Shown here: piece after piece, positions 22,019 through 46,436 of the stretch
How positions within the stretch are numbered: position 1 is the stretch's first letter
Layout: each line of letters starts with the position of its first letter
Source of the DNA: Pseudomonadota bacterium
Lineage (GTDB): Bacteria > Desulfobacterota > Binatia > Binatales > Binataceae
Assembly: GCA_021323675.1 (NCBI GenBank)
Contig: JAJPKP010000070.1
Coordinates: 147,887-211,886, forward strand
Direction of reading: 5' to 3'
Length of the DNA: 64,000 bases
Notes under the pieces: generated by a model
The model's input: only the letters and a program-made list of their open reading frames with translations
Database searches by the model: none
Told to the model about the DNA's origin: nothing
Program-made: the position numbers and the translations under genes

Positions 22019-22405
22019 CTATGAGCGCTCATAGATTCCGCGCGACTTGCGCTTGGCGAGACCCGCGTCTATCCATCGCGTTATCGCGGCAAAGATTTCC
22101 GAGGGACGTTTGTCCTTCAGCCCGCGGACCTTGCGTACATCTGACGCGGTGAACTGCTTGGGCATCTGCTTCAACACATTGCGCCAGTTGATACGTCCTT
22201 TTCCAACTCGTCCGGCTTCCGGCGCGGGCGCCGCTTCTCGGGACCCGCCGAGTAGACTACTTAGCCGAGCCTCTTCCTGCTTGAGCCGGCTGAGCTCACT
22301 TTCCTTGGCACGAATCTGTTCTCTCAAATTGGCAAGTACACTGCGAGCCTGACGCTGGATGCGCGCGAAAGCTGAAGTTACTCCGCCGAGACTGGCACGT
22401 GGCAT
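22019..22405 (-). CDS. Hypothetical coiled-coil protein of 128 aa
   Basis: It has an ATG start, and its codon usage is consistent with a real gene. The central heptad region is LREQIRAKESELSRLKQEEARLSSLL. Confidence 0.45.
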   Translation of the reverse strand: MPRASLGGVTSAFARIQRQARSVLANLREQIRAKESELSRLKQEEARLSSLLGGSREAAPAPEAGRVGKGRINWRNVLKQMPKQFTASDVRKVRGLKDKRPSEIFAAITRWIDAGLAKRKSRGIYERS

Positions 22406-23121: not shown

Positions 23122-23406
23122 ATGGGTCGCAGACTGTATGTTGGGAATCTGGCTTGGACTGTGACTGATCAAGACCTGCAGGAGGCATTTTCAGAAGCGG
23201 GTAAGGTAGACAGTTCACAAGTCATCATTGACCGGGCGACGAATCGCTCAAGAGGGTTTGGTTTCGTGGAGATGGCATCCGAGGAAGCCGCGGAGGCCGC
23301 TATCAAGAAACTGAACGGAAGAGACATCAAGGGAAGACCAATCAAGGTCAACGAAGCCCAAGCGCGAAACAACGATCGCAGGGGAGGACCGCGCGACCGC
23401 GCTTAG
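23122..23406 (+). CDS. RRM-type RNA-binding protein
   Basis: It has RNP2 (LYVGNL) and RNP1 (RGFGFVEM). The protein is 94 aa with a Gly/Arg tail. The RBS is GGAGAAGG. Confidence 0.9.
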   Translation: MGRRLYVGNLAWTVTDQDLQEAFSEAGKVDSSQVIIDRATNRSRGFGFVEMASEEAAEAAIKKLNGRDIKGRPIKVNEAQARNNDRRGGPRDRA

Positions 23407-30318: not shown

Positions 30319-30350
30319 AGGTATGACCTCTCTGAGCTTCGCAAGTCGTG

Positions 30351-30851
30351 TTAAGCGGCGCGGTTCGGGCGCGCTCCCGATTTCATCGCTTTGGCCGCAT
30401 CGAGCACCGCGCGAACTATCTTGTCATAGCCGGTGCACCGGCACAGGTTCCCGGCCAGCGCGTATCGGACTTCCTGTTCGGTCGGGTCGGGATTGCGGTT
30501 GAGCAGAGCGGTGGCAGACACCAGGATTCCCGGCGTGCAGATTCCGCACTGCAGGCTCGCATGTTCCAGGAACTTCTGCTGCAAGGGATGCAGCGCGGTG
30601 CCATCGGCGAGCCCCTCAACGGTACGAATATTCTTGCCCTGGGCCTCGACCCCGAGCATCAGGCACGAGCACACCGCACGCCCATCAACCAGCACGCTGC
30701 AGGCGCCGCAATCTCCGGTGAGGCATCCTTCCTTGCTGCCGGTCAGTTCGAGCACATCGCGCAGGCATTCGAGCAGGCTCTGGCGCGGTTCGCAGAGAAA
30801 CTCGACCGCTTCGCCATTGATGGTGGTTTCAACCAGCGTCTTCTTGGACAT
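30351..30851 (-). CDS. (2Fe-2S)-binding small subunit of the molybdenum hydroxylase (CoxS-like)
   Basis: It has two 2Fe-2S motifs, CLTGDCGACSV and CGICTPG...CRCTGY. Confidence 0.9.
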   Translation of the reverse strand: MSKKTLVETTINGEAVEFLCEPRQSLLECLRDVLELTGSKEGCLTGDCGACSVLVDGRAVCSCLMLGVEAQGKNIRTVEGLADGTALHPLQQKFLEHASLQCGICTPGILVSATALLNRNPDPTEQEVRYALAGNLCRCTGYDKIVRAVLDAAKAMKSGARPNRAA

Positions 30852-30872
30852 TCTTCTTTCGCCTCTTGCGCG

Positions 30873-31742
30873 TTAGCGTTTGCGGGCGCGTTCCGCCGCG
30901 ATTGTCAGGACACGCCGCGTCAGCACGCCGGTTACGTGACGTCGATATTCAGCCGTCCCGCGCATGTCATCGATGGGGGAGCTTGCCTCGCTGGCCAGCC
31001 GTGCGGCCGTCTCCAGCGCCGCGTCATCCAGCTTCTTTCCGGCCAGCGACTCCGATGCTTTCTGCGCGAACAGCGGAGTCGCGGCGACCGCGCCCAGACC
31101 GATTCGCGCGGCCTTAACCTTGTCGCCATCGAGCGTCACCGACGCGCCGACGCCGACGACGGCGATATCCATTTCGTTGCGCGGGATGAAACGCAGATAG
31201 GCATCGCTGGAGTGGGGCGCGGGAGCGGGGATCAGAAGCTGCACCAGCAGTTCCCCGGGCTTCAGCACCGTGCGTCCCGGGGACACGACGAATTCTTCAA
31301 CCGGCACTTCGCGCTCGCCGCGCGGCCCGGCGATTCGCGCCCGCGCCTTGAGCGCGATCAGCGCCGGCGTGCTGTCCGCCGCGGGGGAACCGTTGCAGAG
31401 ATTGCCTCCGACCGACGCGCGATTTTGAATCTGCAGCGATCCGATCAGGTGAGCCGCTTCGGTCAGGCCCGGGTAATTCCGGCGCATCTCCTCATTCTCG
31501 GCGATATCGATGCACGAGACTGCCGCGCCCAGCCGCAACCCTGCCCTGGCGCTAAACTTCAGCTCGCGCAACTCCTTGATCTTTTTGATATCGACGACGA
31601 ACTCGGGCTGGCGAACACCCGCGCGCATCTGGATCAGGAGGTCGGTGCCGCCGCACAACGGGCGGGCTTTCTCGCCATGCGCCTTCATCAACTTGAGCGC
31701 ATCGGCGAGCGTGGACGGAGATTCGTAGTTGAAAGCGTGCAA
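30873..31742 (-). CDS. FAD-binding medium subunit of the molybdenum hydroxylase (CoxM-like)
   Basis: It has the FAD_binding_5 and CO_deh_flav_C pattern (LCGGTDLL...). It has a GGAGG RBS. Confidence 0.85.
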   Translation of the reverse strand: MHAFNYESPSTLADALKLMKAHGEKARPLCGGTDLLIQMRAGVRQPEFVVDIKKIKELRELKFSARAGLRLGAAVSCIDIAENEEMRRNYPGLTEAAHLIGSLQIQNRASVGGNLCNGSPAADSTPALIALKARARIAGPRGEREVPVEEFVVSPGRTVLKPGELLVQLLIPAPAPHSSDAYLRFIPRNEMDIAVVGVGASVTLDGDKVKAARIGLGAVAATPLFAQKASESLAGKKLDDAALETAARLASEASSPIDDMRGTAEYRRHVTGVLTRRVLTIAAERARKR

Positions 31743-31931
31743 GGGAGAATTATCCTCCGGATAAGGCGTGGGTCAGTCCAGCCTTCGATCCCTTTAGATA
31801 GCGCAGTTTCCCCCGCCGCGAAAAGGGTGCGAAGGTCGCAAATTGAAACTTTTGCGCGATGCCGATTTCTCCATCAACCCGCAAAAACACCGGGTAGCAC
31901 GAAGGGCACGCTGTCCTTGCCCTGGCGGGGA

Positions 31932-33026
31932 CTAGTCCTTGAAGCCCAGCCTTCGCGCGATACGAGCTGCGGCGCAAGCAAGCGCTGGAGCGTGAGTGCC
32001 CATGTTGGCAAAACGCGGGTCGGTGGTCTGTCCGCGCACGTAGCGCACATATATCTGCTCAACCACGGTCGCGTTCTTCCAGTGCGCCCACGCCCAGTAA
32101 AAGGGGATATTGGCAAGGTCGCGTCCGGTCCGCTTCGCGTAACGCTGCATGAGCTCATCGCGCGACATAAAGCCCGGCGCAAGCGTGTGTACTTCGCCTT
32201 CTCCGGTGGCAAGCAAATCTTCGGGGTCGCTCTTCTCGCGCCAGTAGCCGAGCGAGGTTCCGAAATCCACCAGCGGGTCGCCGATGGTGGCCATCTCCCA
32301 ATCGAACACGCCGACGATCTTCCCCGGATCGTTGAAGTCGATCATCACGTTGTGCAGGTAGAAGTCGTTGTGGATAAGCGCCGGCGGCGGAGACTCGGGC
32401 ATATTCTCGAGAAACCATGCGCCGAGCTTTTCCATCAGCGGCACCTCGCGCGTTTTCGCCTTCTCCCACCTGCTCATCCATCCGGTGATCTGCCGCTTCA
32501 GAAATCCTTCCGGCTTGCCGAACTCGCCGAGGCCGATCTCTTTGTAGTCCACGGCGTGGAGGTCGGCGAGGGTATCTACGAACGCTTCGGACAACCGCCG
32601 CAGCGAAGGAGGATCCTTGGGGAGTTCAGGCGGAAGCGGCTGGCGCATCCTGACCAGCAGGCCTTTGCGGCGCTCCATCACAAAGAACGGCGCTCCGATT
32701 ACCGAGGTATCGTCGCAGAACACCATCGCGCGCGGCGCCGGCTTGAATGCCTGCCACACGCGGGAGAGGACGCGATACTCGCGGCTCATGTCGTGTCCGC
32801 CGACCGGCAGGGGCCCGAACGGCGGCCGGCGCATCACCCATTCCCGGTCGCCGAAGCGAAGGAGGTAGGTGAGGTTGGAATGTCCACCGCGAAACTGCTG
32901 CACGGTCAGCGGCCGGTCAGCGTCGGGCAACTTGTCGCGCAGATATGCGGCCAGCTTCGACCAATCGAGCTGTTCTTCCTCACGAACGTCGCCAAATTCC
33001 GGAGTTATGCCCACCGAGTTTGCCAT
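31932..33026 (-). CDS. Phosphotransferase-family protein (APH-like kinase) that is typically paired with acyl-CoA dehydrogenases
   Basis: It has the Brenner/APH motifs HNDFYLHNVMI and VFDWEMATIGDPLVD. It lies immediately downstream of an acyl-CoA dehydrogenase gene. The start is the ATG at 33026 inside the longer track ORF. Confidence 0.8.
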   Translation of the reverse strand: MANSVGITPEFGDVREEEQLDWSKLAAYLRDKLPDADRPLTVQQFRGGHSNLTYLLRFGDREWVMRRPPFGPLPVGGHDMSREYRVLSRVWQAFKPAPRAMVFCDDTSVIGAPFFVMERRKGLLVRMRQPLPPELPKDPPSLRRLSEAFVDTLADLHAVDYKEIGLGEFGKPEGFLKRQITGWMSRWEKAKTREVPLMEKLGAWFLENMPESPPPALIHNDFYLHNVMIDFNDPGKIVGVFDWEMATIGDPLVDFGTSLGYWREKSDPEDLLATGEGEVHTLAPGFMSRDELMQRYAKRTGRDLANIPFYWAWAHWKNATVVEQIYVRYVRGQTTDPRFANMGTHAPALACAAARIARRLGFKD

Positions 33027-33213
33027 TTGAAGATGTATGCCAAAAAAGCCGATGCCTGCGCTACACGCGCGAGTCCTGCCCTCGAGGTGGTGGTGCCTGG
33101 TCCGGCGGCAGCCGGGCGGCTGTGGCGAGAAGGTATGTGGAAGGCGGGAACCCTCGAGCAGGGCGCCGAGACTTCTCAGCGCCCTGCCCTGAGATGCTGA
33201 CTCGGTTATCGCG

Positions 33214-34404: not shown

Positions 34405-34668
34405 CGGCTACTCTCAACTTGAGTGGTTTATTCCGGAATTCATAACTCACTTGGAAAACAAAGAGAAGTGGCGCGAGAGCGCGCCGATGCGCGCGCTTGC
34501 GTTTCGCGGATTCTTCCGTGTGAGGACGCCGAGTGCAGCGGTGTGCGCGCCGCGGACCGGTCGGCAGACCGGTCCATGCGCGCACGACTATCGCCGGACC
34601 GAATTGTCGCGGGTTGTCCGGCGGCTTTCCGCCGCGATCTGCCCCGCCACTTTGCGATACATTCCGAT

Positions 34669-35043
34669 TTACCCGGCTTGCTTTGCCATCGCTCGATGCG
34701 CGGCGGCGAGGATTTTGTCCTGTTCGGCGGCTTTCTGAAACGCCTTCGCCAGGTTCTCGCAATGATTGGCCATCCCGACCGGCTTCATCGACTTGAAGGC
34801 CTCGTAACTCTTGGCCGCCGAAAGATGCAGCTTGGCCTTCGCTTCGTTCTCAGCGGCCTCTTTGTCGTAATACTCGGCGATCGCTTCGTGGTCGGCCGGC
34901 GTTTTTGCATTAGCGATCGCCTGCGCCAGATTGTCATCGGTGACAGTAGTCTGCTGGCCCAAGGCCTGGTGAGAGGAAAACGTCCATACCCCAAGCATCA
35001 GCAAGAATGCGGTGGCCGCCAGAGTCACGATACGCGATTTCAT
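34669..35043 (-). CDS. Small secreted alpha-helical protein (signal peptide plus about 100 aa), hypothetical
   Basis: The signal peptide is MKSRIVTLAATAFLLMLGVWTFSSHQALG. The mature part is rich in A/K/E helices. Confidence 0.5.
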   Translation of the reverse strand: MKSRIVTLAATAFLLMLGVWTFSSHQALGQQTTVTDDNLAQAIANAKTPADHEAIAEYYDKEAAENEAKAKLHLSAAKSYEAFKSMKPVGMANHCENLAKAFQKAAEQDKILAAAHRAMAKQAG

Positions 35044-35226
35044 ACGTAATCCTCCTTTACCGGGTCATGTCTTTCGATTGCCACAATCCGCAACTGGTCC
35101 TAGCCTTTATACTATGCGGAGGGCCTTCATAGTTATCGGCTCGGCAGGCGCGATAGCGATTGCATGAACCGACGGATTCAAATGCGCGGCCCAAGCAAAT
35201 CAGATCGCGCCTCGCACGGAGCTTCG

Positions 35227-35619
35227 ATGTTGCGCGCGATCGTTGCCTCGAATACGCTCCGCTGTGTGATACGCCGGATTGTCACTTTTGCGCTGGCGTT
35301 CCTTCTGCTGATCAGCGCATACGGCCCGGCCTGCGCGGGGCTCCCCGGGTTCAATACGACCGCGTGCTGCGGTGCCGGGTGCGCGAGTGCGGGACAGTCG
35401 GCCAAAGCGCTGCACTGTTGTCAGACGGCGAGCGGCCAGAGCGCGCAGGAAGTTGTACCCGTTCACAACTTTGCGCCGGACCATTTCCAGCGGACAATCT
35501 CAAGCGGAATCGCCGTTTCGGTTCCTCATCTTCAAGCGGATCGATGGGCGTTCACGGAAGTCCACGCACCTCCCGGACTGGCGCCGTCCCCCGAAAATCT
35601 CTGTTGTCTCCAAATCTGA
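35227..35619 (+). CDS. Possible small Cys-rich exported or membrane protein; a weak call
   Basis: This frame gives a hydrophobic helix (IVTFALAFLLLISAYGPACAG) followed by three CC pairs (TACCGAGCASAG...HCCQTASG...NLCCLQI). The overlapping ORF 35160..35642 in another frame is Arg-rich junk. GC3 in this frame is only moderate. Confidence 0.3.
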   Translation: MLRAIVASNTLRCVIRRIVTFALAFLLLISAYGPACAGLPGFNTTACCGAGCASAGQSAKALHCCQTASGQSAQEVVPVHNFAPDHFQRTISSGIAVSVPHLQADRWAFTEVHAPPGLAPSPENLCCLQI

Positions 35620-35788
35620 TCTCGCCGATCGCGGTCCTTTAGCGCGTCGAGGCCGTTAGCGCCCGCCTGCCAGCGGCGCGAGAAGGTCCCCGATGCACAC
35701 GGCTGCCGGGCGCATGACGCGCCCGGTTCGAATTGCCATGCAGCGGGCAACGAGCCTTCCGCATGGCCGAGAACGATAGGTGAGAAAA

Positions 35789-37093
35789 ATGGCGTCGTAC
35801 GCAGGCTTTCAGCGTTCGATCTTCAGCTACGCGCTGGCGTCGCTGTTTGCGACGGTTTTGTTGACCGCGCCGGCTCGCGGACAGGCTTCGGCAGGCGATT
35901 CGAGTCTATCGCCGACGAGTGTCGATGCGCTGGTGGCGGAGGCGATGCGCTCAAATCCCGAGATTGCCGCGGCGCGCAGCCGATGGCGCGGAGCTTCCAA
36001 AATTCCGCGGCAGGTCGCAACGCTCGACGACCCGCAGGTGTTTGTGCAGGAGTTTACGGTCGGCAGCCCAGCGCCCGCTTCAGGCTACGAGACCAGCGAC
36101 TTTTACTACACCGGATTCGGCGCCGCCCAGGACATCCCCGGTCCCGGCAAACTTAAGCTTCGCGCGCAACGAGCGGAGAAGGATGCGGAATATGCGCGCG
36201 CGAGCCTCGAGTCGACGGAAAGGCGCATCGCGGAAAAAGTACGCGAGACCGCGTTCAACCTCTTTTATCTCGAACAATCCGCCCAGTTGCTTCAACAAAC
36301 ACGCGACGAGCTTTTGACGATCGAACAGACCGCCGAGCAGCAGTACCGCACGGGGATGGGCCAGCAGCAGGACGTGCTCAAGGCTCAGCTTGCCGCGACC
36401 TCCATCGTCAAGGACCTCGAGACAAATCGCGAAGATATCGAGTCGGCCGAGGCGAGCCTGAAGGCGATGCTGGGACGGGAGGGAGACTCGCGCGATATCG
36501 AGATCGCATCCGTGACGCCTACCGCTCTGAAGCTCGACGACGCGCAGCTTGGCCAAGCAGCCGACACTGCATCGTCAGAGGTCAGGATGGCGCGGGCGAT
36601 GGTTTCGAGCAGCCAGGCTTCGCTTGAACTGGCGCATCGCAACTACTGGCCCGACTTCAGCATCGGCTACCAATACGACAAAACCGGTCCGGGTTTCCGC
36701 GACTACTACATGCTGACCGTGGGCGCGAAAATTCCCCTGTATTTCTGGCGCAAACAGACTCCTGCGGTCGAACAGGCGGCGGAAGAAAAAGCCGCGGCCC
36801 ATAGCCAGCTCCACGCGACCAGGCTGGCCGCGTTGTCCGACCTGCGGAGCAACATGGTCGCAGTCCACACCCAGGATCGGATTGTGACGCTCTATCGCGA
36901 CGGGTTGATTCCGCAGGGCGAGGCGACGCTGGAATCCGCGCGCGCAGCCTATCGAACCGGCAAGGTCGATTTTCAAACGCTGCTGTCGGCGGTCAACGAC
37001 CTGCTGAATCTGCGCGAGGGCTATTACCGCGCGGTTGCGGATCACGAAATCGCGGTCGCGCGGGTCAAGCAGATAATTGGTGAACAGTCATGA
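35789..37093 (+). CDS. Outer-membrane efflux protein (TolC/CusC/CzcC family) of a heavy-metal RND system
   Basis: It has a signal peptide and OEP-family repeats. The ATG at 35789 follows an AGGTGA RBS. It overlaps the adaptor gene in an ATGA arrangement. Confidence 0.85.
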   Translation: MASYAGFQRSIFSYALASLFATVLLTAPARGQASAGDSSLSPTSVDALVAEAMRSNPEIAAARSRWRGASKIPRQVATLDDPQVFVQEFTVGSPAPASGYETSDFYYTGFGAAQDIPGPGKLKLRAQRAEKDAEYARASLESTERRIAEKVRETAFNLFYLEQSAQLLQQTRDELLTIEQTAEQQYRTGMGQQQDVLKAQLAATSIVKDLETNREDIESAEASLKAMLGREGDSRDIEIASVTPTALKLDDAQLGQAADTASSEVRMARAMVSSSQASLELAHRNYWPDFSIGYQYDKTGPGFRDYYMLTVGAKIPLYFWRKQTPAVEQAAEEKAAAHSQLHATRLAALSDLRSNMVAVHTQDRIVTLYRDGLIPQGEATLESARAAYRTGKVDFQTLLSAVNDLLNLREGYYRAVADHEIAVARVKQIIGEQS

Positions 37094-38550
37094 AATATCC
37101 GTCGAGGGCATTGGCTTTCGCGATCGCGATTCTGCTGGGGCTGACAGCGAGAATCGTCCTCGCGCAAACGAGCCTGGCGCCGATCCGCCTTTCTCCGGAG
37201 CGCCGCCAGCTTATCGGCCTGCAGACGGCCGTAGTCGAGGAAAAGGATCTGGACGGACGAATGGAAACCACGGGCCTGGTCGAGCCGGACGAGCAACTTG
37301 AAAGCACGGTGCAGACCCGGTTTTCGGGATGGATCAGGCAGGTATTCGTAAATCAGACCTATCAGCCCGTGCATGCCGGCCAGCCGCTCTTCACCATCTA
37401 CAGTCCGGACCTCCTTAACACCGAGAATGAATATCTCATCGCGCTTAATGCCGCCGATCGGTTGCGCACCAGCACGGTTAGCGGTGTTGCGGATGGAGCG
37501 GCTTCACTTTCGGGCGATGCGCTGGAGCGCCTTAAGCACTTTGGCGTGCCGGCGACCGAGATTGCGCGGCTCAAGCGCGAGCGCACCGTGCGCGATGCGA
37601 TTGAGATCGATTCGCCTCTCACCGGCTACGTGGTCGAGCGCAATGTCCTGCCCAACATGTACGCACAGCCGGACGCCCGGCTCTACGCGATCACCACTCT
37701 GTCGAGCGTGTGGATCTACGCGGCGGTGTTCCAGGACCAGATCGCGCAGGTGAGAGTTGGCGACCCGGTTACCGTGACCGTTGATGGCTATCCGGGGCGA
37801 AGCTTTCCGGGCCGGGTCGATTTCATCTGGGAGGCGATGGATCCGGCGACGCGCACCGTGCGCGTCCGATGCAGCTTCGCCAATCCCGATCGCCTGCTCA
37901 AGCTCGGTATGTACGTCAACGTCGCCATCACTCGCCGGTTGGGCCGGGGGCTGGTGATACCGGACTCGGGGGTGTTGCGCACGGGCCTGCGCAATGTCGC
38001 GTTTGTCGATCGCGGCGACGGTTACCTGACGCCGGTCGAGGTCGAGCTGGGCGCGCACCTCGGTCACAGTTTCGAGGTCCTGAAGGGGCTGCGCGCGGGC
38101 GATCGAATCGTGAGCTCGGCGAATTTTCTCATCGATTCAGAGAGCCAGTTGCAAGCCGCGGCCAGCACCTTCGCTCCGCCTCCACCCGGCGTGGGCGTTC
38201 CCGCGGGTGATGCGCAGGAAGGCGCGTCCAGCGCGACCTTAACTACCGATCCAAGTCCTCCGATCCGGGGCTCGAACAAGCTGGTGGTCGCGCTTCGCGA
38301 TGGCCTGGGCAAGCCGATAACGGGAGCGCGGGTCTCGGTGACGTTCTATATGGCCGCGATGCCGGCGATGGGAATGGCGGCGATGCGCGCGCAAGCGAAT
38401 CTTTCGGACCGCGGCGACGGCACGTACTCCGGCGCGATCGAGCTCGCAAGCGGCGGTTCATGGCAGGTCACCATAGCGGCATCAAAAGAAGGACGGCCGA
38501 TCGCCGGCAAACAATTCAACCTCTCAGTCTCCGGATCGATGGCGATGTAA
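37090..38550 (+). CDS. Periplasmic adaptor (membrane fusion protein, CusB/CzcB family) with an extra Met-rich C-terminal domain
   Basis: It has the HlyD/CusB fold. About 120 aa of extra C-terminal sequence contain MAAMPAMGMAAMRA. Confidence 0.85.
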   Translation: MKYPSRALAFAIAILLGLTARIVLAQTSLAPIRLSPERRQLIGLQTAVVEEKDLDGRMETTGLVEPDEQLESTVQTRFSGWIRQVFVNQTYQPVHAGQPLFTIYSPDLLNTENEYLIALNAADRLRTSTVSGVADGAASLSGDALERLKHFGVPATEIARLKRERTVRDAIEIDSPLTGYVVERNVLPNMYAQPDARLYAITTLSSVWIYAAVFQDQIAQVRVGDPVTVTVDGYPGRSFPGRVDFIWEAMDPATRTVRVRCSFANPDRLLKLGMYVNVAITRRLGRGLVIPDSGVLRTGLRNVAFVDRGDGYLTPVEVELGAHLGHSFEVLKGLRAGDRIVSSANFLIDSESQLQAAASTFAPPPPGVGVPAGDAQEGASSATLTTDPSPPIRGSNKLVVALRDGLGKPITGARVSVTFYMAAMPAMGMAAMRAQANLSDRGDGTYSGAIELASGGSWQVTIAASKEGRPIAGKQFNLSVSGSMAM

Positions 38551-38566: not shown

Positions 38567-41500
38567 ATGATCGAACGAACCATCGATTGGTGCAATGAAA
38601 ACCGCTTCCTGGTTTTTGCCGCCGTCGCCGCGCTGGTGTTCGGCGGAATCTGGTCGCTCGGCAGAATTCCGCTCGATGCGCTGCCGGATATATCCGACGT
38701 GCAGGTCATCGTTCACACCGAGTGGAAGGGGCAGCCGCCCAACCTGATTGAAGACCAGGTGACTTATCCGATCGTCACCGCGATGCTGGCGGCGCCGCGG
38801 GTCAAGGCGGTCCGCGGGCAGACGATGTTCAATGACTCGTACGTGTTCGTGGTGTTCGAGGATGGCACCGACATCTATTGGGCACGAAGCCGCGTGGTCG
38901 AGTATCTGCAGCAGATCCAGGGCCAGCTTCCTCTCGGAGCAAATCCGGTGATCGGCCCGGATGCGACGGGAGCGGGATGGGTTTACGAGTACCTGCTCAT
39001 CGATCGCCGCCATAATCTCAACCTCGCCGACTTGCGCAGTCTGCAGGATTGGCAGGTTCGCTACGCGCTGGAGACGGTCCCCGGCGTTGCCGAAGTCGCG
39101 ACGATCGGAGGATTCGTCAGGCAATATCAGGTGAAGCTCGATCCGAGCCGCCTGCTCGCTCTCCACGTTCCGTTGCAAACCGTCATCGACAGGATCCGCG
39201 AGAGCAGCAACGAAGTCGGCGGCCGGATGCTCGAGATGAGCGGCGCCGGCTACCTGGTACGAGGCACCGGATATATCAAGTCGCTCGACGATCTCGAGAA
39301 GATCGCGGTCGCGACCAACAACGGCACCCCTGTGCTGGTGCGTGACCTTGGGGTCGTGACCTATGGGCCCGACCTGCGCGAGGGTGTCGCGGAATGGAAC
39401 GGCGAAGGCGAGGCCGTCGGCGGAATCGTGGTGATGCGCTACGGGCAGAACGCGCTCAACGTCATCAACGGCGTCAAGGCGCGAATCGAGGAGATCAGCA
39501 AGAGCCTGCCGGCGGGCGTCGAGATCGTGGCCGGCTACGATCGGTCGGGGCTCATCGAGGCTTCAATCGACACCCTCAAGCGCGAACTGTACGAAGAAGC
39601 GATCATCGTGAGCCTGGTGATTGTCGTGTTTCTGTTTCATCTGCGGTCGGCGCTCATACCGATTCTGACGCTGCCGATCGCGGTTCTGGCGACATTCATT
39701 CCGATGTACTTCTTCCAGGTCAGCTCCAACATCATGTCCCTCGGCGGATTGGCGCTGGCGATCGGCGTGCTGGTCGATGCGTCGATCGTGATGGTGGAGA
39801 ATGGCTACCGGCATCTGTCGGAGCGGCAGCGGTCGGAGGGGGCGGTCGGCGAGGCGGACCGCCGGAAGATCCTGCTCGAGGCGGCCAAGCAGGTCGGGCG
39901 CCCGATCTTCTTCTCATTGATAATCATCGTGGTGTCATTTCTCCCCGTGTTTCTGCTGGAAGCGCAGGAGGGAAGGATGTTCCGGCCGCTGGCGGACGCC
40001 AAGACGCTGGCGATCACGTTCTCATCGGTGCTCGCGATTACGGTCGTGCCGGTGCTGATGATCCTGCTGGTCAGGGGGCGGCGGCTCAGGCCCGAGTCGG
40101 AAAATCCGGTTTCGCGTTTTTTTCAGCGGCTCTATCTGCCGATAATCAAGTGGTGCCTCAGGCATCGGGGGGCAACGATCGCCGCGAACCTGGTTTTTCT
40201 GGCGGCAACTCTACCGCTGGCGTTCAGGCTCGGAAGCCAGTTCATGCCGCCTCTATTCGAGGAATCGGCGCTTTTTATGCCGACCGCGCTGCCGGGCATT
40301 TCGATTACGTCCGCCAGCGACCTGCTGCAAAAGCAGGATCAGATCATCCGCGATTTTCCCGAAGTGACGAGCGTCTTCGGAACCGCGGGAAGATCGAACA
40401 GCGCGACCGACAACGCGCCTATCGACATGTTTGATACCACGATCATGCTCAAGCCGCGCGACCAGTGGCCGCCGGGAGTGACATACGAAAGCCTGATCGC
40501 CGACATGGACGGCAAACTCCAGTTTCCCGGGCTGTCGAACAGTTGGACGATGCCGGTTGAGAACCGGCTTGACATGGAGCTTACCGGAATAAAAACCCCG
40601 GTAGGGCTCAAGGTGCAGGGACCCGACATCAATGAGATTCAACGCATCGGATCGGAGATCGAGGAGCTGCTGAGCTCCGTAAAGGATACGCGCGCGGTTT
40701 TCGCCGAGCGCGTCTCCCAGGGCTTCTACATCGATGTCGAGCCGGATCGCGACGCGGCGGCGCGCTACGGGCTTACGGTTGGCGATATCCAACTCGCAGT
40801 CAGCTCGGGAATCGGCGGCGAGGATATCGCGACTACGGTGCGCGGGCGCGAGCGATATCCCATAAACGTGCGCTATCTCCAGGACTATCGCGACAATCTC
40901 GATTCGCTCAGGTCGGTCCTGATCGCGACGCCGGCCGGAGCCCAGATTCCGCTGGGAGAAGTCGCTAAAGTGCGCATCGACCAGGGACCGTCGATGATAC
41001 GCGACGAGGACGGCCGCCTGACCGGTTACGTGTACCTCGATCTGGCGACCACCGACTACGGCGATTACGTCAAACGGGCACAGGAGGTGCTCGATGCGAA
41101 GCTGCATCTGCCGCCCGGTTACACGGTGCGATGGTCGGGCGAGTATGAATTCGAGCTGCGCGCGCGAAGGCGCCTGGCCTTTATCCTGCCGATCGTGTTT
41201 GGGGTGATATTCGTCCTGCTCTATGCCCTGTTCAATTCCGCGCTCGAGGCTGCGGTGCTGATCCTGCCGTGTCTGTACGCGATGACGGGAGGGCTGCTGC
41301 TCCAATATTTCATGGGATTCAACTTCAGCGTCGCGGTCTGGGTTGGGTACATCGCGCTGTTCGGAATCGCGGTGGAAACCGGAGTTGTGATGGTCATCTA
41401 CCTGCACGAGGCTCTGAACCGCCGCGCCGCCGCCGGACCGCTCGACCGCCGCGCCATCGAAGAGGCGGCCATCGAAGGCGCCGTACACCGGCTCAGGCCA

Positions 41501-41704
41501 AAGCTGATGACCGTAGCGGTGGTGATGTTGAGTCTTGCGCCGATCCTGTGGGCGAGCGGCGTCGGTTCGGACGTGATGAAGCCGATCGCCGCGCCGATTG
41601 TGGGCGGGATGGTCACCTCAACGATTCATGTTCTTATCCTGGTGCCTGTGTTCTTCGCGATGATGAAGGAGCGGGGCTTGATCAAAGCGCACCCGCTAGA
41701 CTGA
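38567..41704 (+). CDS. Heavy-metal efflux RND pump (CusA/CzcA family)
   Basis: The protein is 1045 aa with 12 TM helices and the HME-RND architecture. It has a GGAGGGAAG RBS. Confidence 0.9.
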   Translation: MIERTIDWCNENRFLVFAAVAALVFGGIWSLGRIPLDALPDISDVQVIVHTEWKGQPPNLIEDQVTYPIVTAMLAAPRVKAVRGQTMFNDSYVFVVFEDGTDIYWARSRVVEYLQQIQGQLPLGANPVIGPDATGAGWVYEYLLIDRRHNLNLADLRSLQDWQVRYALETVPGVAEVATIGGFVRQYQVKLDPSRLLALHVPLQTVIDRIRESSNEVGGRMLEMSGAGYLVRGTGYIKSLDDLEKIAVATNNGTPVLVRDLGVVTYGPDLREGVAEWNGEGEAVGGIVVMRYGQNALNVINGVKARIEEISKSLPAGVEIVAGYDRSGLIEASIDTLKRELYEEAIIVSLVIVVFLFHLRSALIPILTLPIAVLATFIPMYFFQVSSNIMSLGGLALAIGVLVDASIVMVENGYRHLSERQRSEGAVGEADRRKILLEAAKQVGRPIFFSLIIIVVSFLPVFLLEAQEGRMFRPLADAKTLAITFSSVLAITVVPVLMILLVRGRRLRPESENPVSRFFQRLYLPIIKWCLRHRGATIAANLVFLAATLPLAFRLGSQFMPPLFEESALFMPTALPGISITSASDLLQKQDQIIRDFPEVTSVFGTAGRSNSATDNAPIDMFDTTIMLKPRDQWPPGVTYESLIADMDGKLQFPGLSNSWTMPVENRLDMELTGIKTPVGLKVQGPDINEIQRIGSEIEELLSSVKDTRAVFAERVSQGFYIDVEPDRDAAARYGLTVGDIQLAVSSGIGGEDIATTVRGRERYPINVRYLQDYRDNLDSLRSVLIATPAGAQIPLGEVAKVRIDQGPSMIRDEDGRLTGYVYLDLATTDYGDYVKRAQEVLDAKLHLPPGYTVRWSGEYEFELRARRRLAFILPIVFGVIFVLLYALFNSALEAAVLILPCLYAMTGGLLLQYFMGFNFSVAVWVGYIALFGIAVETGVVMVIYLHEALNRRAAAGPLDRRAIEEAAIEGAVHRLRPKLMTVAVVMLSLAPILWASGVGSDVMKPIAAPIVGGMVTSTIHVLILVPVFFAMMKERGLIKAHPLD

Positions 41705-43289
41705 GGTTGAACTGATTCAAAGCCAGCACCGCCAGAAACGGCACCTCGGTCGTATGGTCGACTTCCGACGCCGAAAAAAATCCCGGCACCAGGAAGTTGG
41801 CGTTATCGACCAGAAATTCCTGGTAAGGCCCGTTGGGATTCTGCGTGGTGAAGTAAGAGAAGGCGACGTCGGTGTTGATCCGAGTAACTACCGAGTCCTG
41901 TTTCAGCGAAACCAGCGCGAGCGGAAATTTGGGAGTGAACAGGTAGGTGTCAGATGAGAGCAGCTTGGCGTACAGAGGATTGGACGGATCTCCATTCATC
42001 AGAGCTTGCGCATAGGTGGTGGTCAGCAGCGGCTGAACGGAGTTGTTGTCAGTTGTCCACGATGTCTGTGAAGCCTGCACCACCATCGTCAGTATCACCT
42101 GCGTGTCCTGGAGATCGACCTGGTAGTAGAGACCATCGATATTTCCGCTCGAGCCGCAAAGTGGCAGATTGCCCTGAGTGCAAACATAAACTGGCGACAC
42201 GAAGATGTCGGTCGGGGCGATGTTCTGGTAATGGGAGAAGCTCAGCACGAGGTCTCCGCCCAGATACGGTTTCGACAGCGCGGAAACGCTCGGATCGAGC
42301 GAGAACCAGGGATTGTTCGCCGAGGAGATGTTGAAAAACAGATACGGCACCATCGTTCCGGTAAGGTCGAACACGCCCGACATCGGAACCACGTCCGCCA
42401 GCTTTACTTTGAGCGAACTCGCGTAGCGCGGATTATCCTGCATCAGGTGCGCCGCCTGAAGCGCGTAAGCTCCGCCTTCCGAGTAGCCCGCGATGAAAAG
42501 TGGCACCCGTCCCTGAACCCGCTTGCCAAGATAGCTTCGCGCCGCCTTCACCATCGCCAGCCCGCTCTGCGCGTTTTCCACCGGGTAGACTACATAAGGA
42601 TGCGGATCGGCGGTGTCGTCGCCGAGTCCGATATAGTCCGGCATCACCACGACATATCCTTGCGCAGCCCACAGCGCCGCCAGCAGCGGTCCCGTGCCGT
42701 TACCAGTCGAGTTGTTCGCGGTTATGAAGTTCGACGGTATGTTGTTTCGCTGCACGGTGGTGCCATGAAAGAAAAGCACGATTCCTTTGATTGAACTCGA
42801 GGCCAGCTCCGGGACGACGATACCGCCCGATACCGTCACGGGAACGCCGCCAACGTTGAGCGCGCCGTAGGTGATCTTGACCGCATCGACGTTCTGAATG
42901 CCGAGGGGATTGTTGGAAATCGGATTGGCGGTCACATCGAAGTTGCCGAATTGCGGCGTGTTCAGATTGGCTTCGTTTTGCTGGCAGTCAGTCTGAGAAA
43001 AGCCGCTCGGGCAGATGGTTTGGACATAGTACGTCTGGAGATCCGGGATGCCGGGGGCGTCCTGGGCCGCGACATTCGATCCGGCCGCTGATGGGCCGGT
43101 TGGATAAGTCGTGATCAGGTTGCTGCTGAGCAGCGTTCCTTCACCCTTGGCGGTGTCGAACGGAGCCGGCGATGTCGTGCCGGAGCTGGTCCCTGAGCCG
43201 CCGCAGGCGCTCAGAGCAATGCTCAGAGCCAGCGCCAGCAGCGTGGCCGCGACACGATGGCACACCTTCGCCAAGGTTTTGGGATTCAC
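41682..43289 (-). CDS. Secreted lipase/esterase-family lipoprotein (alpha/beta hydrolase, LIP/secretory-lipase-like)
   Basis: The lipobox is LSAC and the nucleophile elbow is GYSEGG. The gene has a noticeably lower GC and an N/S/T/Q/Y-rich composition unlike its neighbours. Its 3' end overlaps the end of the pump gene convergently by about 23 bp. Confidence 0.7.
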   Translation of the reverse strand: MNPKTLAKVCHRVAATLLALALSIALSACGGSGTSSGTTSPAPFDTAKGEGTLLSSNLITTYPTGPSAAGSNVAAQDAPGIPDLQTYYVQTICPSGFSQTDCQQNEANLNTPQFGNFDVTANPISNNPLGIQNVDAVKITYGALNVGGVPVTVSGGIVVPELASSSIKGIVLFFHGTTVQRNNIPSNFITANNSTGNGTGPLLAALWAAQGYVVVMPDYIGLGDDTADPHPYVVYPVENAQSGLAMVKAARSYLGKRVQGRVPLFIAGYSEGGAYALQAAHLMQDNPRYASSLKVKLADVVPMSGVFDLTGTMVPYLFFNISSANNPWFSLDPSVSALSKPYLGGDLVLSFSHYQNIAPTDIFVSPVYVCTQGNLPLCGSSGNIDGLYYQVDLQDTQVILTMVVQASQTSWTTDNNSVQPLLTTTYAQALMNGDPSNPLYAKLLSSDTYLFTPKFPLALVSLKQDSVVTRINTDVAFSYFTTQNPNGPYQEFLVDNANFLVPGFFSASEVDHTTEVPFLAVLALNQFNLSLAGAL

Positions 43290-43573
43290 TCTAACTCCTC
43301 CCTGATTCGGTTGGACGATTTGCGCGAACTTCTATGCAGACGCACGTTCGAAGTCGCGAGCTGTCTATTCGCGATTCCGCTGCGGCGTAATTTTTTCAGG
43401 ACGTCGACCGATAAGGCAAGAGCAAAAGTATGCGGGGATTAGACAATCTTATCTGCGAGACTTGTCGCGGCGAATACTCCTTCGCGCGACAGCCTTGCAT
43501 TCCCGCGGCGCGGGAAATCGCCATTTGATCGCGCGCACCGCGCGACGCGGATGGTCGCGCGATCCGCGCGATG

Positions 43574-45829
43574 CTAGCTGGCGACCGTCTCTATTCGCGC
43601 CGCAACATGCTTATGGAACGGAGTGCCGGCGAACCAGTCACGATCTTCCGTGGCAGTCAGCTCATTGGGCGCAACGCCGCTCTGAAATTCCTGCCCTTCG
43701 CGATCGGGGTACCAGAGCCCGGTTCCGTTAGGCAGCGCGACGTGACCGGGCAGCATCGTGTCGCTCAACTCGACGACGGCCTCAGCGGTGCCGCGCTTCG
43801 TGATCACGCGCACGCGTCCTCCCGTTCGTACTCCGAGCCGCGAGCCATCCTCGGGATTCATCCACAGCGAGCCGTGCGGATCTTTTGGCCGCCATTTGGG
43901 GTCACGAATGATCGTGTTGGCGGTCGAAGAGCGCCTCTGTCCCGCGGACAGCACAAACGGAAATTCCGGATCGGCGGCGGGTTGCTCGTCGCGAAGCGAC
44001 CGAAGCTCGGGAATGAGCTCGGGGATAGTGAAGTCGATGCGACCGCGATGAATTCGGCGCCAGGTCTCCCCATAGGGATCGACGCTGACTACCACTCCGG
44101 AAGGATTTTTCAGAATCGCGTCGAACAGCGCCTCGCCAAGCGCCGGACCCTCGCCGCTGAAACCGGCTCGCCGCACCGAATCGGCATAGCGTCGCGCGAA
44201 TTCCTGCGCGATGCCCCATACTGACGCGCCGTTCTGGTAGGCGGCGCCCAGGACGGGCCCGAGCGTTTCGTAGAGCAGCACGGTCATTACCGCGCCGAGG
44301 CGCGGACGTTCAGAGAGTACACGCTGCAGCTCGAGCGCATATGCCAGCCGGCCCTTGGCCGCCGCCGCATGCAGCGGCGCGACGTCATCGTCGGTCATCG
44401 CGCCAAGAGCGCGGACCAGGCGGCGATGGATTTCGCCTTCAGGTAGCGTTCCGGGCAACGGCTCGAGAATCGGCGCGCGGAGCGTGAACGAGTTGGCGAA
44501 ATCGGTGCCGGTGTCGAATCCCGAGCCGAAAAAGGTCGCCTCGGATTTCTCGTATTGGGAGCAGGCGGGCAGCACGTAGTGTGCCTCGCGCGCCGTCTCC
44601 GTCATCGCAACGTCGATGACAACGACAAATTCCAGGGCGCGCAGCGCCTCGCGCATCCGCGCGCTGTCGGCCACCGAATGGGCGGGATTCTCGCTTTCGA
44701 TCAGCATCGCCCGAAAACGCCTGGGATGGTCGGTCAGAATCTCGTCGGGTATCACATTGGCCGGAATCAGATTGCCGATAATGCGATGGCCCCCGACCGG
44801 GCTGGTCCGGTCCGAAAGCGCCCCGCTGAACATCCCGGTCAGACTGGTTGCGGCATTCATCGCGCCGCGCTTGCCGACATTTCCGGTCAACGCGTAAAGC
44901 AGCTTCTCGAGATATGAATTGAGCGTGCTGTGAGGCGCCTGCTCAATCCCCAGATCCTCGAAGAACGACACGCTCGATGCGCGCGCGATCCGGTGCACCA
45001 CGTTGCGTACCAGGCTCTCGCTGACCCCGGCGCGTGCGCAATAGTCGGCGATCGGAACTTCACTCAACGCGGCGAGGATTTCGGAACTGTTTTCGCCGTG
45101 ATCGCGAATGAAGGCGCGATCGACCAGGTCTTCCTGCACCAGGACACCCAGCATCGCGGCCAGACAGAAGGCGTCGGTGCCCGGCCGCACCCGCAAATGA
45201 TAGTCCGCCATCTCCGCCGTCTCGGTGCGGCGCGGATCGATTACAACCAGGGCGCGATTGGGGTCCGCGGCAAGATCGCGCAGAATGGGGCGGGCTCGCT
45301 GAAAACCGTGCGACTGCCACGGATTCTTCCCCACGAATACCGCGACCTCGGCATGCTCAAAGCCCGCGCGCACTGCGGTTCCAAACATCCGGTGTTCGAC
45401 CCAGAACTCGCCGGTTTTTTCCTGCGCGAGCGCATTCGAGCTGTAAACGCATCCCAGCGCCCGCCGGGTCGAGGCTCCGTAGCTTCCCACCAGATGATTT
45501 CCCTGGCCGCCACCGCCGTAATAGAAAATGCTCTCCCCGCCCCATTTGTCGCGGACCTTGAGGAATCCCGCGGCGACTTCGCGGATCGCCGTGTCCCAAT
45601 CAATCTCCTCGAACGTGCCGTCCGCCCTTCGGCGCATCGGCGCAGTCAGGCGATCGCGCCCGTTCTGATAGAAGTCGATTCGTTGCGCCTTTTCGCAAGC
45701 GTAGCCGCGAGAAGCGACGTGGGCGCGGTCTCCGCGCACGCGCGCGATGCGGCGGCCGTCGACCTTCACTTCGATTCCGCAGTTGACCGAACAGAGGATG
45801 CACGCGGTCTTGAGCCATTCGTCAGCCAT
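43574..45829 (-). CDS. Molybdopterin (bis-MGD) oxidoreductase, cytoplasmic, with an N-terminal 4Fe-4S site; assimilatory nitrate reductase (NarB/NasA)-like
   Basis: It has CILCSVNCG (C-x2-C-x3-C) plus RGYACEKA, and no Tat signal. The protein is about 751 aa with MGD-binding domains. The nitrate-reductase assignment is an inference from its size and from the neighbouring nitrate-reductase-associated-like gene. Confidence 0.8.
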   Translation of the reverse strand: MADEWLKTACILCSVNCGIEVKVDGRRIARVRGDRAHVASRGYACEKAQRIDFYQNGRDRLTAPMRRRADGTFEEIDWDTAIREVAAGFLKVRDKWGGESIFYYGGGGQGNHLVGSYGASTRRALGCVYSSNALAQEKTGEFWVEHRMFGTAVRAGFEHAEVAVFVGKNPWQSHGFQRARPILRDLAADPNRALVVIDPRRTETAEMADYHLRVRPGTDAFCLAAMLGVLVQEDLVDRAFIRDHGENSSEILAALSEVPIADYCARAGVSESLVRNVVHRIARASSVSFFEDLGIEQAPHSTLNSYLEKLLYALTGNVGKRGAMNAATSLTGMFSGALSDRTSPVGGHRIIGNLIPANVIPDEILTDHPRRFRAMLIESENPAHSVADSARMREALRALEFVVVIDVAMTETAREAHYVLPACSQYEKSEATFFGSGFDTGTDFANSFTLRAPILEPLPGTLPEGEIHRRLVRALGAMTDDDVAPLHAAAAKGRLAYALELQRVLSERPRLGAVMTVLLYETLGPVLGAAYQNGASVWGIAQEFARRYADSVRRAGFSGEGPALGEALFDAILKNPSGVVVSVDPYGETWRRIHRGRIDFTIPELIPELRSLRDEQPAADPEFPFVLSAGQRRSSTANTIIRDPKWRPKDPHGSLWMNPEDGSRLGVRTGGRVRVITKRGTAEAVVELSDTMLPGHVALPNGTGLWYPDREGQEFQSGVAPNELTATEDRDWFAGTPFHKHVAARIETVAS

Positions 45830-45962
45830 GATGCTTCTCCCGACGAGCGGGCCGGCGACCGGCCGAGTGTTGTTGACTAAGTTCTATTTTGGAACTTACT
45901 ATTGAGTCAAGGCTTGTCTGAGCTGCGGGGATTTCGGCTTGCGCTGGTCGGAAATAAGCGAG

Positions 45963-46436
45963 ATGAAATGTTCGGTTGCCCGGACCCTTTCGGTCATCGG
46001 CGACCGCTGGACGATGCTGATTGTGCGCGATGCGTTCCTCGGCAAGCGCCGGTTTGCGGACTTTCAGGATGACCTGGGCATGACGCGCCATCGCCTGTCG
46101 GCGCGGCTGGGCAAGCTTATCGACGAAGGCATTCTGATGCGCGTGCGATACCAGGATCGGCCGCCGCGATTTGAATATCGGCTGACCGAGAAGGGCATCG
46201 ACCTTTATCCGGTGATCGTGGCGATGCTGCGATGGGGCGACCGATGGATGGCGGGCGCGGACGGCCCGCCCATCGAGCTCGTGCACAAAAATTGCGGAAA
46301 GCACGTAATGCCGGCGCTTACCTGTCCAGCGTGCAAAGAGGAAGTGAATGCACGTACGATGTCTGCACGGCCCGGGCCAGGCTTGAGAAGGCGATCGCAT
46401 CCGCCTGTCGCCCGGATTAGTTCACGCAAGGAGTAG
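45963..46436 (+). CDS. HxlR-family winged-helix transcriptional regulator with a Cys-containing C-terminal extension
   Basis: CSVARTLSVIGDRWTMLIVRDAF...RFEYRLTEKG is the HxlR signature. The C-terminus carries C-x9-C-x2-C. The ATG at 45963 lies inside a TTG-initiated track ORF. It is divergent from the molybdoenzyme gene. Confidence 0.7.
   Translation: MKCSVARTLSVIGDRWTMLIVRDAFLGKRRFADFQDDLGMTRHRLSARLGKLIDEGILMRVRYQDRPPRFEYRLTEKGIDLYPVIVAMLRWGDRWMAGADGPPIELVHKNCGKHVMPALTCPACKEEVNARTMSARPGPGLRRRSHPPVARISSRKE

Follow-up and report, generated by a model that had tools for sequence, protein, structure and literature searches.

A codon-adapted LipA/LesA-type esterase lipoprotein gene beside cusA in a Binataceae genome, with a convergent overlap that is probably a junction scar

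In this study, we analysed a 64-kb stretch of DNA (the window, 64,000 nucleotides) and a gene within it for which a sequence-only reading had suggested a lipase function and horizontal acquisition. The gene (41682-43289, minus strand) is an ORF for a predicted 535-aa alpha/beta-hydrolase lipoprotein of the LipA/LesA type (LIP-like), hereafter the esterase. We consider it probable, at roughly 0.75 for the three statements jointly, that the gene is native in composition, that its product would be a LipA/LesA-type esterase, and that an ancestral rearrangement placed it beside cusA, with the convergent overlap of the two genes as the scar of the junction.

Results

The esterase gene and its signals

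The esterase ORF was read from the sequence, with a GTG start codon at 43289 and a stop codon at 41682-41684. A Shine-Dalgarno-like sequence, GGGAGGAG (43295-43302, minus strand), lies 5 nt 5' of the GTG, and AGGAGG was found at the matching position in an independent assembly (L066). The 284-bp intergenic region 5' of the gene (43290-43573, minus strand) was searched by blastn. The results showed that its esterase-proximal 139 bp (43290-43428) falls within one alignment with L066, which has about 82-86% identity along its full length. No sigma-70-like promoter site was found in the esterase upstream region, where 0.8 were expected by chance. Scans for terminators, promoters and repeats around the gene, as well as an Rfam scan of the same surroundings, gave chance-level or empty results, and no paralogue of the esterase was found in the 64-kb window. 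This is a real gene, and its product an ordinary membrane-anchored secreted esterase by prediction, a further member of an already known family.

Lipoprotein features and catalytic residues of the esterase

The translation begins with a predicted type II (lipoprotein) signal peptide at residues 1-28, followed by the lipidation residue Cys29 (43203-43289, minus strand); it reads (V/M)NPKTLAKVCHRVAATLLALALSIALSA up to the cleavage position and C after it. The peptide follows the lipoprotein pattern, with a positive n-region (K4, K8 and R12), a hydrophobic h-region (residues 13-25) and a canonical lipobox, L26-S27-A28-C29, that fits [LVI][ASTVI][GAS]C. Cys29 was kept in at least 90% of 30 homologues and Gly30 was nearly invariant too. 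The LSAC lipobox seen in the sequence-only reading is present at residues 26-29 with a conserved cysteine, and its conservation in the esterase subfamily leads us to predict membrane anchoring. Residues 28-36 of the predicted model (pLDDT 92 and pTM 0.89 for the esterase) had low pLDDT, which fits a flexible tether. After export by Sec, Cys29 would be lipidated, signal peptidase II would remove the signal peptide, and a flexible Gly/Ser/Thr linker would hold the protein at a membrane, on either its periplasmic or its cell-surface side. Under the E. coli sorting rule, which comes from another organism than the host, Gly at +2 predicts the outer membrane.

A LipA-type triad was found in the esterase, with Ser270 and Asp465 placed by alignment and His512 by position. 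The catalytic triad of Xanthomonas oryzae pv. oryzae (Xoo) LipA is numbered Ser176/Asp336/His377, within G-X-S-X-G (PMC4709584). In the phmmer alignment, Ser270 (codon 42480-42482) corresponds to the catalytic Ser176 of Xoo LipA; it lies in the nucleophile elbow GYSEGG (residues 268-273; 42471-42488, minus strand), in which G268, S270, E271, G272 and G273 were invariant among the 30 homologues. The catalytic Asp465 (codon 41895-41897, minus strand), in the motif LKQDSVV, aligns with LipA Asp336, and both D465 and S466 were invariant among homologues. HMMER alignments to LipA end short of the triad histidine, and His512 (codon 41754-41756, minus strand), in the motif VDHTTE, is the probable candidate by conservation and position. 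D511 and H512 were conserved in at least 90% of homologues, and in the predicted model His512 lies in the loop preceding the C-terminal helix (residues 516-531), which is the canonical position. Carboxylic ester hydrolysis would proceed via the Ser270-His512-Asp465 triad beneath a helical cap domain. Disulfides are probable between C93 and C102 and between C370 and C378, two Cys pairs that are conserved.

The Pfam LIP family (PF03583) matched the esterase with a score of 27.0 bits (E = 3.5e-6), above its gathering threshold of 23, and a precomputed PF03583 match was present in most esterase homologues. The match is weak and partial, covering profile positions 24-114 of 286, about one third. 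The earlier assignment to LIP-type lipases from the GYSEGG elbow thus stands, with invariant elbow residues and a family match that is real though weak and partial. Within the joint probability given above, we regard the protein as a predicted LipA/LesA-type serine esterase/lipase that is related to the CalA/LIP lipases.

A variable slot between the oxidoreductase gene and cusA

The gene that converges on the esterase gene is cusA (38567-41704, plus strand), which encodes a 1045-aa CusA/CzcA heavy-metal RND pump (TIGR00914, 1082 bits) and is the last gene of cusCBA, together with cusC (35780-37093) and cusB (37090-38550); the family matches of cusCBA were PF00873, HlyD_D23 and OEP. The other neighbour is a 751-aa molybdopterin oxidoreductase gene (43574-45829, minus strand; Pfam and NCBIfam matches), a conserved backbone gene with a variable slot downstream. 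Its orthologues shared 80-93% identity and had differing downstream neighbours. The window arrangement, in which the oxidoreductase gene is followed by the esterase gene and the latter faces cusA, was found again in GCA_037025425.1, where Nitr_red_assoc, HxlR and oxidoreductase genes lead into the esterase gene and cusA faces it. Between this genome and the window, the esterases were 83% identical, the CusA proteins 92% and the oxidoreductases 93%, and the rearrangement is older than the separation of two genomes with a difference of about 17% between their esterases.

In three more distant Binataceae, the slot between the oxidoreductase gene and cusA (or acyl-CoA dehydrogenase) lacked the esterase and held other genes, namely a GH1 glycosidase and a 92-aa ORF (L070/L071), GH1 in a genome where cusCBA is absent (L069), and a DUF3303 gene (L073). 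Four slot states were seen in five genomes, and by these sequence comparisons the slot 3' of the oxidoreductase appears hypervariable. Esterase homologues at 64-75% identity had unrelated surroundings, in which no neighbouring gene was conserved. When the flanking ORFs at 24 homologue loci were clustered in a search for conserved operon partners, only generic short-chain dehydrogenases recurred. No remnant of GH1 or of the 92-aa ORF and no tRNA was found in the window, and no integrase, IS element or flanking repeat was found at the esterase gene, repeats being at chance level; its neighbours in the window are metabolic and efflux genes. At one locus (L078), a 64% esterase homologue has, about 1.4 kb upstream, a 54-codon internal cusA fragment that abuts a tRNA-Ser; the fragment may mark the end of a chimeric contig or be what is left of an island.

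The convergent overlap as a probable junction scar

The convergent overlap with the pump gene, estimated at about 23 bp in the sequence-only reading, is exactly 23 bp (41682-41704, both strands), from the esterase stop to the cusA stop at 41702-41704. Within it, the esterase tail reads S-L-A-G-A-L-stop on the minus strand and the CusA tail I-K-A-H-P-L-D-stop on the plus strand. The homology of cusA to other Binataceae ends at 41675-41679. About 80 of 119 CusA orthologues carry (R/K)xGTL after KERAL, and the window CusA is without the RKGTL tail. The esterase tail, N-L-x-x-G-A-L-stop, is common to paralogues (L067) that do not adjoin cusA. The metagenome scan gave a further esterase (L098) that ends normally, with cusA not adjacent.

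We propose that, in the common ancestor with the MAG GCA_037025425.1, a rearrangement put the esterase gene into the slot, its source being judged most likely to lie within Binataceae. This event would have joined the esterase 3' end to a cusA cut short by about 11 codons, so that the last 7 codons of cusA would now be read antisense to the native esterase tail, giving the 23-bp overlap. The analysis gave no donor locus and no mobility signature by which movement within the genome, transfer inside the lineage and differential loss could be cleanly told apart. The reverse course, in which the CusA tail arose from an RKGTL tail by indels and the esterase was extended into cusA, was rejected because the L067 paralogues, away from cusA, share the esterase tail. 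A 19-nt inverted repeat around the overlap (41637-41655 / 41776-41794) was judged coincidental, both proteins encoding LVP(V/G)FF there.

We also considered whether the slot held the esterase gene from the start and the gene was passed on by vertical descent, with GH1, the 92-aa ORF and DUF3303 as later replacements and the overlap formed by a small spacer deletion. With four slot states in five genomes the polarity is not obvious, and the divergence of the esterase relative to that of CusA is similar in close and in more distant comparisons; both points speak for such a history. However, the 64-75% homologues are scattered over unrelated contexts, the widespread RKGTL tail of CusA implies that the window tail is derived, and GH1 fills the slot whether cusCBA is present or absent. 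We therefore regard an ancestral occupant as unlikely, and prefer the rearrangement beside cusA.

Composition and lineage of the esterase gene

To assess composition, we used the ORFs of the 64-kb window as the baseline. The results confirmed the low GC and the unusual protein on which the sequence-only reading had built its case. The GC of the esterase gene was 0.581 compared with 0.624 for the window, and N, S, T, Q and Y together made up 33.3% of the protein compared with 17.6 ± 3.5% in the 27 other window proteins, which also differed in Arg (1.3% in the esterase, 9.1% in the others) and Glu (1.5% and 6.5%). The GC was the lowest among window genes of more than 400 aa, yet only about 1.3 SD under the mean of the ORF set. 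GC3 was 0.721 compared with 0.713 ± 0.062 for the window ORFs, and synonymous codon usage gave a log-likelihood z of +0.81 on the window baseline, while wrong-strand ORFs gave -4 to -7. The deficit sits at codon position 1 (GC1 0.576 compared with about 0.65 in neighbour genes), and the GC predicted from amino-acid composition alone was 0.584, compared with 0.582 observed. The lower GC follows wholly from the protein, which has little Arg, Glu and Ala and much Asn, Ser, Thr, Gln and Tyr.

The same pattern was found in 21 of the 22 homologues examined in other genomes, with GC below that of the flanks, GC1 of about 0.55 and GC3 near the value of the flanking ORFs. The skewed amino-acid composition is common to the esterase family. 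By the window baseline, the gene is codon-adapted and native. Since GC3 and codon usage are typical of the window, the compositional argument for transfer fails by a refuting criterion that the sequence-only reading had set itself, and the contrast that had suggested horizontal acquisition is explained by the amino-acid composition of the protein. The case is of use mainly as a warning: where GC3 and codon usage are native, a GC dip combined with an odd amino-acid composition does not count as evidence for horizontal transfer.

The named close homologues of the flanking genes were all from Candidatus Binataceae or Binatus. In the neighbour-joining tree, the esterase fell inside a clade made up of sequences from Binataceae and 'delta proteobacterium' MAGs (taxon labels as deposited). 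Its top matches came from Binataceae or 'delta proteobacterium' MAGs, with copies from Acidobacteriaceae MAGs more distant, and the metagenome scan for closer relatives gave none above 75%. The donor of the esterase looks like a member of the same lineage, not a foreign one.

A recent gain from a lower-GC, phylogenetically foreign donor, still unameliorated, would agree with a GC 4 points under the window, the atypical amino-acid composition, the presence of genes other than the esterase in the syntenic slot of three relatives and the occurrence of homologues in Acidobacteriaceae MAGs. However, amino acids account wholly for the GC deficit in a gene with native GC3 and codon usage, nearly all homologues show the same deficit in their own genomes, the nearest relatives come from the host's lineage (MAG labels as deposited), and no tRNA, integrase, IS element or flanking repeat accompanies the gene. 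An orthologue in the same synteny, a finding that the sequence-only reading had itself named as counter-evidence, was also seen, since the closest relative, with an esterase 17% diverged, shares the arrangement. Such a foreign gain is largely refuted already and highly improbable; the earlier idea of an insert at this position is upheld by the synteny comparison, with other genes in the slot in three more distant Binataceae genomes, but the foreign donor is not. Finally, an assembly, sequencing or ORF-calling artefact, for which nothing specific speaks beyond both tails lying outside conserved domains, can be dismissed, as the sequence leaves no doubt about either reading frame and in L066, an independent assembly, the two ORFs are intact and overlap by 26 bp (a 3-bp indel) in surrounding DNA that is 92% identical.

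Discussion

The preferred reading, a native LipA/LesA-type esterase gene brought beside cusA by an ancestral rearrangement, offers a small, clean example of a convergent overlap as a junction scar that rewrites the C-terminal tail of a pump. Two wider readings, overprinting of the CusA tail at a recombination junction and a distinct lipid-anchored LipA-like subfamily, are tentative when taken jointly, and we would sooner expect the pair to fail than to hold. If they are true, the CusA tail IKAHPLD arose de novo from the antisense of the esterase tail, as a small, datable case of overprinting with a dual-coding constraint; the slot is a recombination hot spot in Binataceae; and the LipA-like subfamily is confined to Binataceae and Acidobacteriaceae, with about 120 extra residues that include a disulfide-bearing insertion. 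A distinct subfamily of this kind may act on soil or plant polyesters. The findings leave current understanding unchanged; they document, for uncultured Binataceae and Acidobacteriaceae, a subfamily of LipA/LesA-like esterases that could be mined as a source of lipid-anchored esterase.

Like other bacterial 3'-3' (convergent) overlaps, this one has the last codons shared on opposite strands and no space for an intergenic terminator. It stands apart in that comparative data here indicate an origin, a junction that would have swapped the conserved cusA tail for antisense read-through.

Among known enzymes, the Candida albicans secretory lipases and Candida antarctica CalA (PDB 2VEO/3GUU; Pfam LIP) shared 13-16% identity with the esterase and are clearly more distant from it than LipA and lpg1103. 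The Legionella pneumophila protein lpg1103 (PDB 4EZI), a structural-genomics 'putative hydrolase', matched with a phmmer E of 9e-15 and a profile E of 2e-27; it is shorter (377 aa) and functionally uncharacterised, and so gives the esterase no function. Xoo LipA (PDB 3H2G-3H2K) matched with a phmmer E of 7e-12 and profile E values of 1e-22 to 3e-22 (3h2g/3h2h). In Foldseek searches with the predicted model, LipA was the best match (E = 1.6e-19), followed by CalA-like lipases, and the overall fold of the model, including the cap (ligand-binding) domain, was the same as that of LipA (3H2G). Identity to LipA and its Xylella fastidiosa orthologue LesA was about 20-23%. In LipA, N228 and G231 are residues that bind carbohydrate. 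Esterases of the LipA/LesA type hydrolyse short-chain esters such as pNP-butyrate and tributyrin. Compared with LipA/LesA, the mature esterase is about 120 residues longer, with an insertion at residues 64-132 that carries a conserved Cys pair and with a larger cap, and its host is an uncultured soil Binataceae, whereas the hosts of LipA and LesA are plant pathogens. LipA and LesA are soluble and type II secreted, whereas the window esterase is a predicted lipoprotein, so that it would differ from them in localisation and not in catalysis.

Esterase gene and predicted product

On the minus strand, 41682-43289 holds an ORF of 535 codons that begins with GTG at 43289; upstream of this start, GGGAGGAG was read from the sequence at 43295-43302 (-). 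The encoded esterase begins with a basic n-region and a hydrophobic core, followed by the lipobox L-S-A-C and, after Cys29, a Gly/Ser/Thr-rich stretch; residues 268-273 are GYSEGG. Across 30 homologues, G268, S270, E271, G272, G273, D465, S466, H175-x-T177, the cysteine pair C93/C102 and C370 were invariant, and C378, C29, G30, D511 and H512 were at least 90% conserved. These results confirmed the sequence-only reading of a real ORF with an LSAC lipobox and a GYSEGG motif; its convergent overlap of about 23 bp, lower GC and richness in N, S, T, Q and Y were likewise confirmed.

Composition of the esterase gene

The GC content of the gene was 0.581 versus 0.624 for the window. N+S+T+Q+Y made up 33.3% of the protein versus 17.6 ± 3.5% in 27 other window proteins, while Arg (1.3% versus 9.1%) and Glu (1.5% versus 6.5%) were scarce. 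GC was computed separately for the three codon positions in 50 long window ORFs. The results showed that GC3 was 0.720, within the window distribution (mean 0.713, SD 0.062), and that GC1 was low (0.576 versus about 0.65 elsewhere in the window). Synonymous codon usage was modelled leave-one-out, with the 64-kb window as baseline. The GC predicted from amino-acid composition alone was 0.584, compared with 0.582 observed, and the synonymous codon choices were typical of the window (log-likelihood z = +0.81). Wrong-strand shadow ORFs, such as that of 192 aa at 45822-46400 (-) opposite the real HxlR gene at 45939-46436 (+), scored strongly negative z values of -4 to -7, indicating that the statistic discriminates. 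The gene had been called compositionally foreign; with GC3 in the normal range on the 64-kb baseline, typical codon usage and GC predicted by amino acids, it was not.

We compared GC at 22 loci of other genomes carrying close homologues of 50-84% identity. The homologue fell below its flanks in 21 of them, by 0.3 to 5.7 points; GC1 of these 21 was about 0.49-0.60 versus about 0.56-0.69 in flanking ORFs, and in most of them GC3 was close to that of the flanking ORFs. Because 21 of 22 loci repeat the low GC1, most of them with flank-like GC3, the GC dip belongs to the protein family itself, which has few charged and many polar residues, and is not the signature of a donor genome.

The window's compositional low is in fact at 22400-23121, away from the esterase gene (GC 0.528 over 22001-23000). 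Among the ORFs there, GC3 was 0.54-0.60 and codon usage was strongly atypical (z -4 to -7); none matched Pfam, and the region had no Rfam match. A long leader or intergenic stretch of higher AT content is the probable explanation; directly downstream is a gene for a 94-aa RRM_1 RNA-binding protein (23122-23406, +). Another shadow ORF with strongly negative z (30348-33200, +; 950 aa) lies opposite an APH-like gene, and such long shadow ORFs can mislead naive ORF calling in a GC-rich genome such as this. A pair of large genes at 7560-14293 (-), of 1152 and 1092 aa, encodes UvrD-helicase and PD-(D/E)XK nuclease domains and is AddAB/RecBCD-like.

Lineage of the esterase

For the flanking oxidoreductase and CusA, every close homologue with a named source belonged to Candidatus Binataceae or Binatus, and the window is therefore from a Binataceae genome. 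The close esterase subfamily (at least 49% identity) was found in Acidobacteriaceae and in MAGs carrying the labels Binataceae, Deltaproteobacteria or "uncultured delta proteobacterium"; Neisseriales and Burkholderiales had copies that were about 30% identical. When 1.84 billion representatives clustered at 50% identity were searched, essentially one full-length cluster took in the close subfamily, and the esterase query retrieved 73 clusters at E <= 1e-30 and 2439 at E <= 1e-3. A neighbour-joining tree placed the window esterase deep within a Binataceae/"delta" clade (MAG labels), with the Acidobacteriaceae copies more basal; it was sister to the copy on contig L066 of MAG GCA_037025425.1 and then to the tandem pair of L067, a JGI metagenome contig. 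These L067 paralogues, P0008 and P0003 (with 66% and 73% identity to the query), lie side by side at 8159-11647, indicating that the family duplicates locally. Acquisition by horizontal transfer from a source of foreign composition was thus unsupported: GC3 and codons are native, and the esterase nests among Binataceae/"delta" relatives, not in a foreign lineage, with no sign of a foreign donor.

A variable slot downstream of the oxidoreductase gene

The closest relative, GCA_037025425.1, has the same order, Nitr_red_assoc - HxlR - oxidoreductase -> esterase <- cusA, across two contigs overlapping by 141 nt, with identities of 93% (oxidoreductase), 83% (esterase) and 92% (CusA). More distant Binataceae keep the backbone of acyl-CoA dehydrogenase (91-92%), oxidoreductase (80-85%), HxlR and Nitr_red_assoc. 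The slot downstream of the oxidoreductase gene (43574-45829, -), to which window positions 43290-43573 and 41680 refer, showed four contents in five related Binataceae genomes. It holds the esterase gene, then cusCBA, in the window and GCA_037025425.1; a GH1 glycosidase gene without cusCBA at locus L069; GH1 and a 92-aa Cys-rich secreted ORF, then cusCBA, at L070/L071; and a DUF3303 gene of 94 aa (L073) or 68 aa (the contig carrying P0242), then cusCBA. Esterase homologues of 64-75% identity lay in unrelated contexts without a conserved neighbour. Given this differing slot content and these unrelated contexts, sequence comparison points to the esterase gene as a lineage-specific occupant of a hypervariable slot, and its placement is older than the split of the window genome and GCA_037025425.1. 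In the proposed check of relatives for the locus without this gene, L069, L070/L071 and L073 had no esterase in the slot, and GCA_037025425.1 shared the arrangement. No tRNA, integrase, IS element or flanking repeat marking the event was found at the locus. A within-lineage rearrangement that put the esterase into the variable slot is supported, and the slot looks like a local recombination hot spot.

Separately, the metagenome contig L078 opens (1-301) with an internal piece of cusA, 54 codons long and sharing 93% identity with residues ~125-178 of window CusA. The piece ends abruptly beside tRNA-Ser(GCT), and about 1.3 kb further downstream lies an esterase homologue of 64% identity (1592-3193); a chimeric contig end, or a remnant of a cus-bearing island at the tRNA, may account for it. 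Between the acyl-CoA dehydrogenase gene and cusC, the window has a 1.4-kb stretch (34405-35779) whose only ORFs (34423-35049 and 35164-35619) showed poor codon usage and no Pfam match, and L073 has two small unannotated ORFs there. Small cus accessory or regulatory genes at 34405-35779 are possible.

Convergent overlap with cusA

The cusA ORF (38567-41704, +) ends with a stop at 41702-41704 and the esterase ORF with a stop at 41682-41684, so that the overlap is exactly 23 bp; in GCA_037025425.1 it is 26 bp, a 3-bp indel relative to the window. Nucleotide homology of cusA ended at 41679 (versus L070) and 41675 (versus L073), 2-6 bases from the esterase stop. About 80 of 119 CusA orthologues carry (R/K)xGTL after MMKERAL; the tails are MMKERGL-IKAHPLD-stop in the window and MMKERAL-VKARRTED-stop in L066. 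The esterase tails are N-L-S-L-A-G-A-L-stop and N-L-N-L-P-S-G-A-L-stop, respectively. Since the two L067 paralogues, neither adjoining cusA, have similar tails (NSVPAGGL-stop and NSPSGGM-stop), the esterase 3' end appears native. By this comparison, cusA appears to have lost about 11 codons and gained 7 from the antisense strand of the esterase tail, and the 23-bp overlap is most likely a junction scar. The loss was probably tolerated, because the CusA tail is naturally short in several orthologues (ALRRS-stop, ELRK-stop, ALKKL-stop). The case documents how a convergent overlap can come about through overprinting of a tail, a mildly novel aspect.

No terminator-like or promoter-like signals above chance were found in or near the junction, and to ascribe a regulatory effect to convergent transcription is speculation. 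The overlap is flanked by an inverted repeat of 19 nt with 79% complementarity (41637-41655 and 41776-41794); it looks coincidental, as it reflects the LVPxFF that CusA (LILVPVFFA) and the esterase (FLVPGFFSA) share close to their C-termini.

Relationship to LipA-like esterases

The Pfam LIP match was weak and partial (27 bits versus a cut-off of 23; profile positions 24-114 of 286), which makes the esterase a distant, partial member of that family. PDB sequence searches retrieved Legionella lpg1103 (4EZI; E = 9e-15, profile 2e-27) and Xanthomonas oryzae LipA (3H2G-K; E = 7e-12, profile 1e-22), a rice cell-wall-degrading esterase. An AlphaFold model built on 30 homologues was confident (pLDDT 92, pTM 0.89). 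Its best Foldseek match was LipA (E = 1.6e-19), with lpg1103 second and the CalA-like fungal lipases, which define Pfam LIP, after that. The HMMER alignment placed Ser270 on LipA Ser176 and Asp465 on LipA Asp336, both experimentally defined triad residues (PMC4709584). LipA and LesA are reported to cleave pNP-butyrate and tributyrin, not long-chain triglycerides (PMC4709584).

From family knowledge, the esterase would be exported by Sec and then lipidated at Cys29, its disulfides would form, and Ser-His-Asp would hydrolyse carboxylic esters; a flexible linker (pLDDT <50 at residues 28-36) would anchor it. Sequence similarity and the predicted fold place it in the LipA/LesA/lpg1103 esterase group, whose mode of action it probably shares; it differs from that group in its larger size and predicted lipid anchor. 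Compared with LipA, the mature esterase is about 120 residues longer, with an insertion at ~64-132 and an enlarged helical cap; it is a predicted lipoprotein, whereas LipA is a soluble type II secreted enzyme. A soil-bacterial subfamily of LipA-like esterases that are predicted lipoproteins is the other mildly novel aspect.
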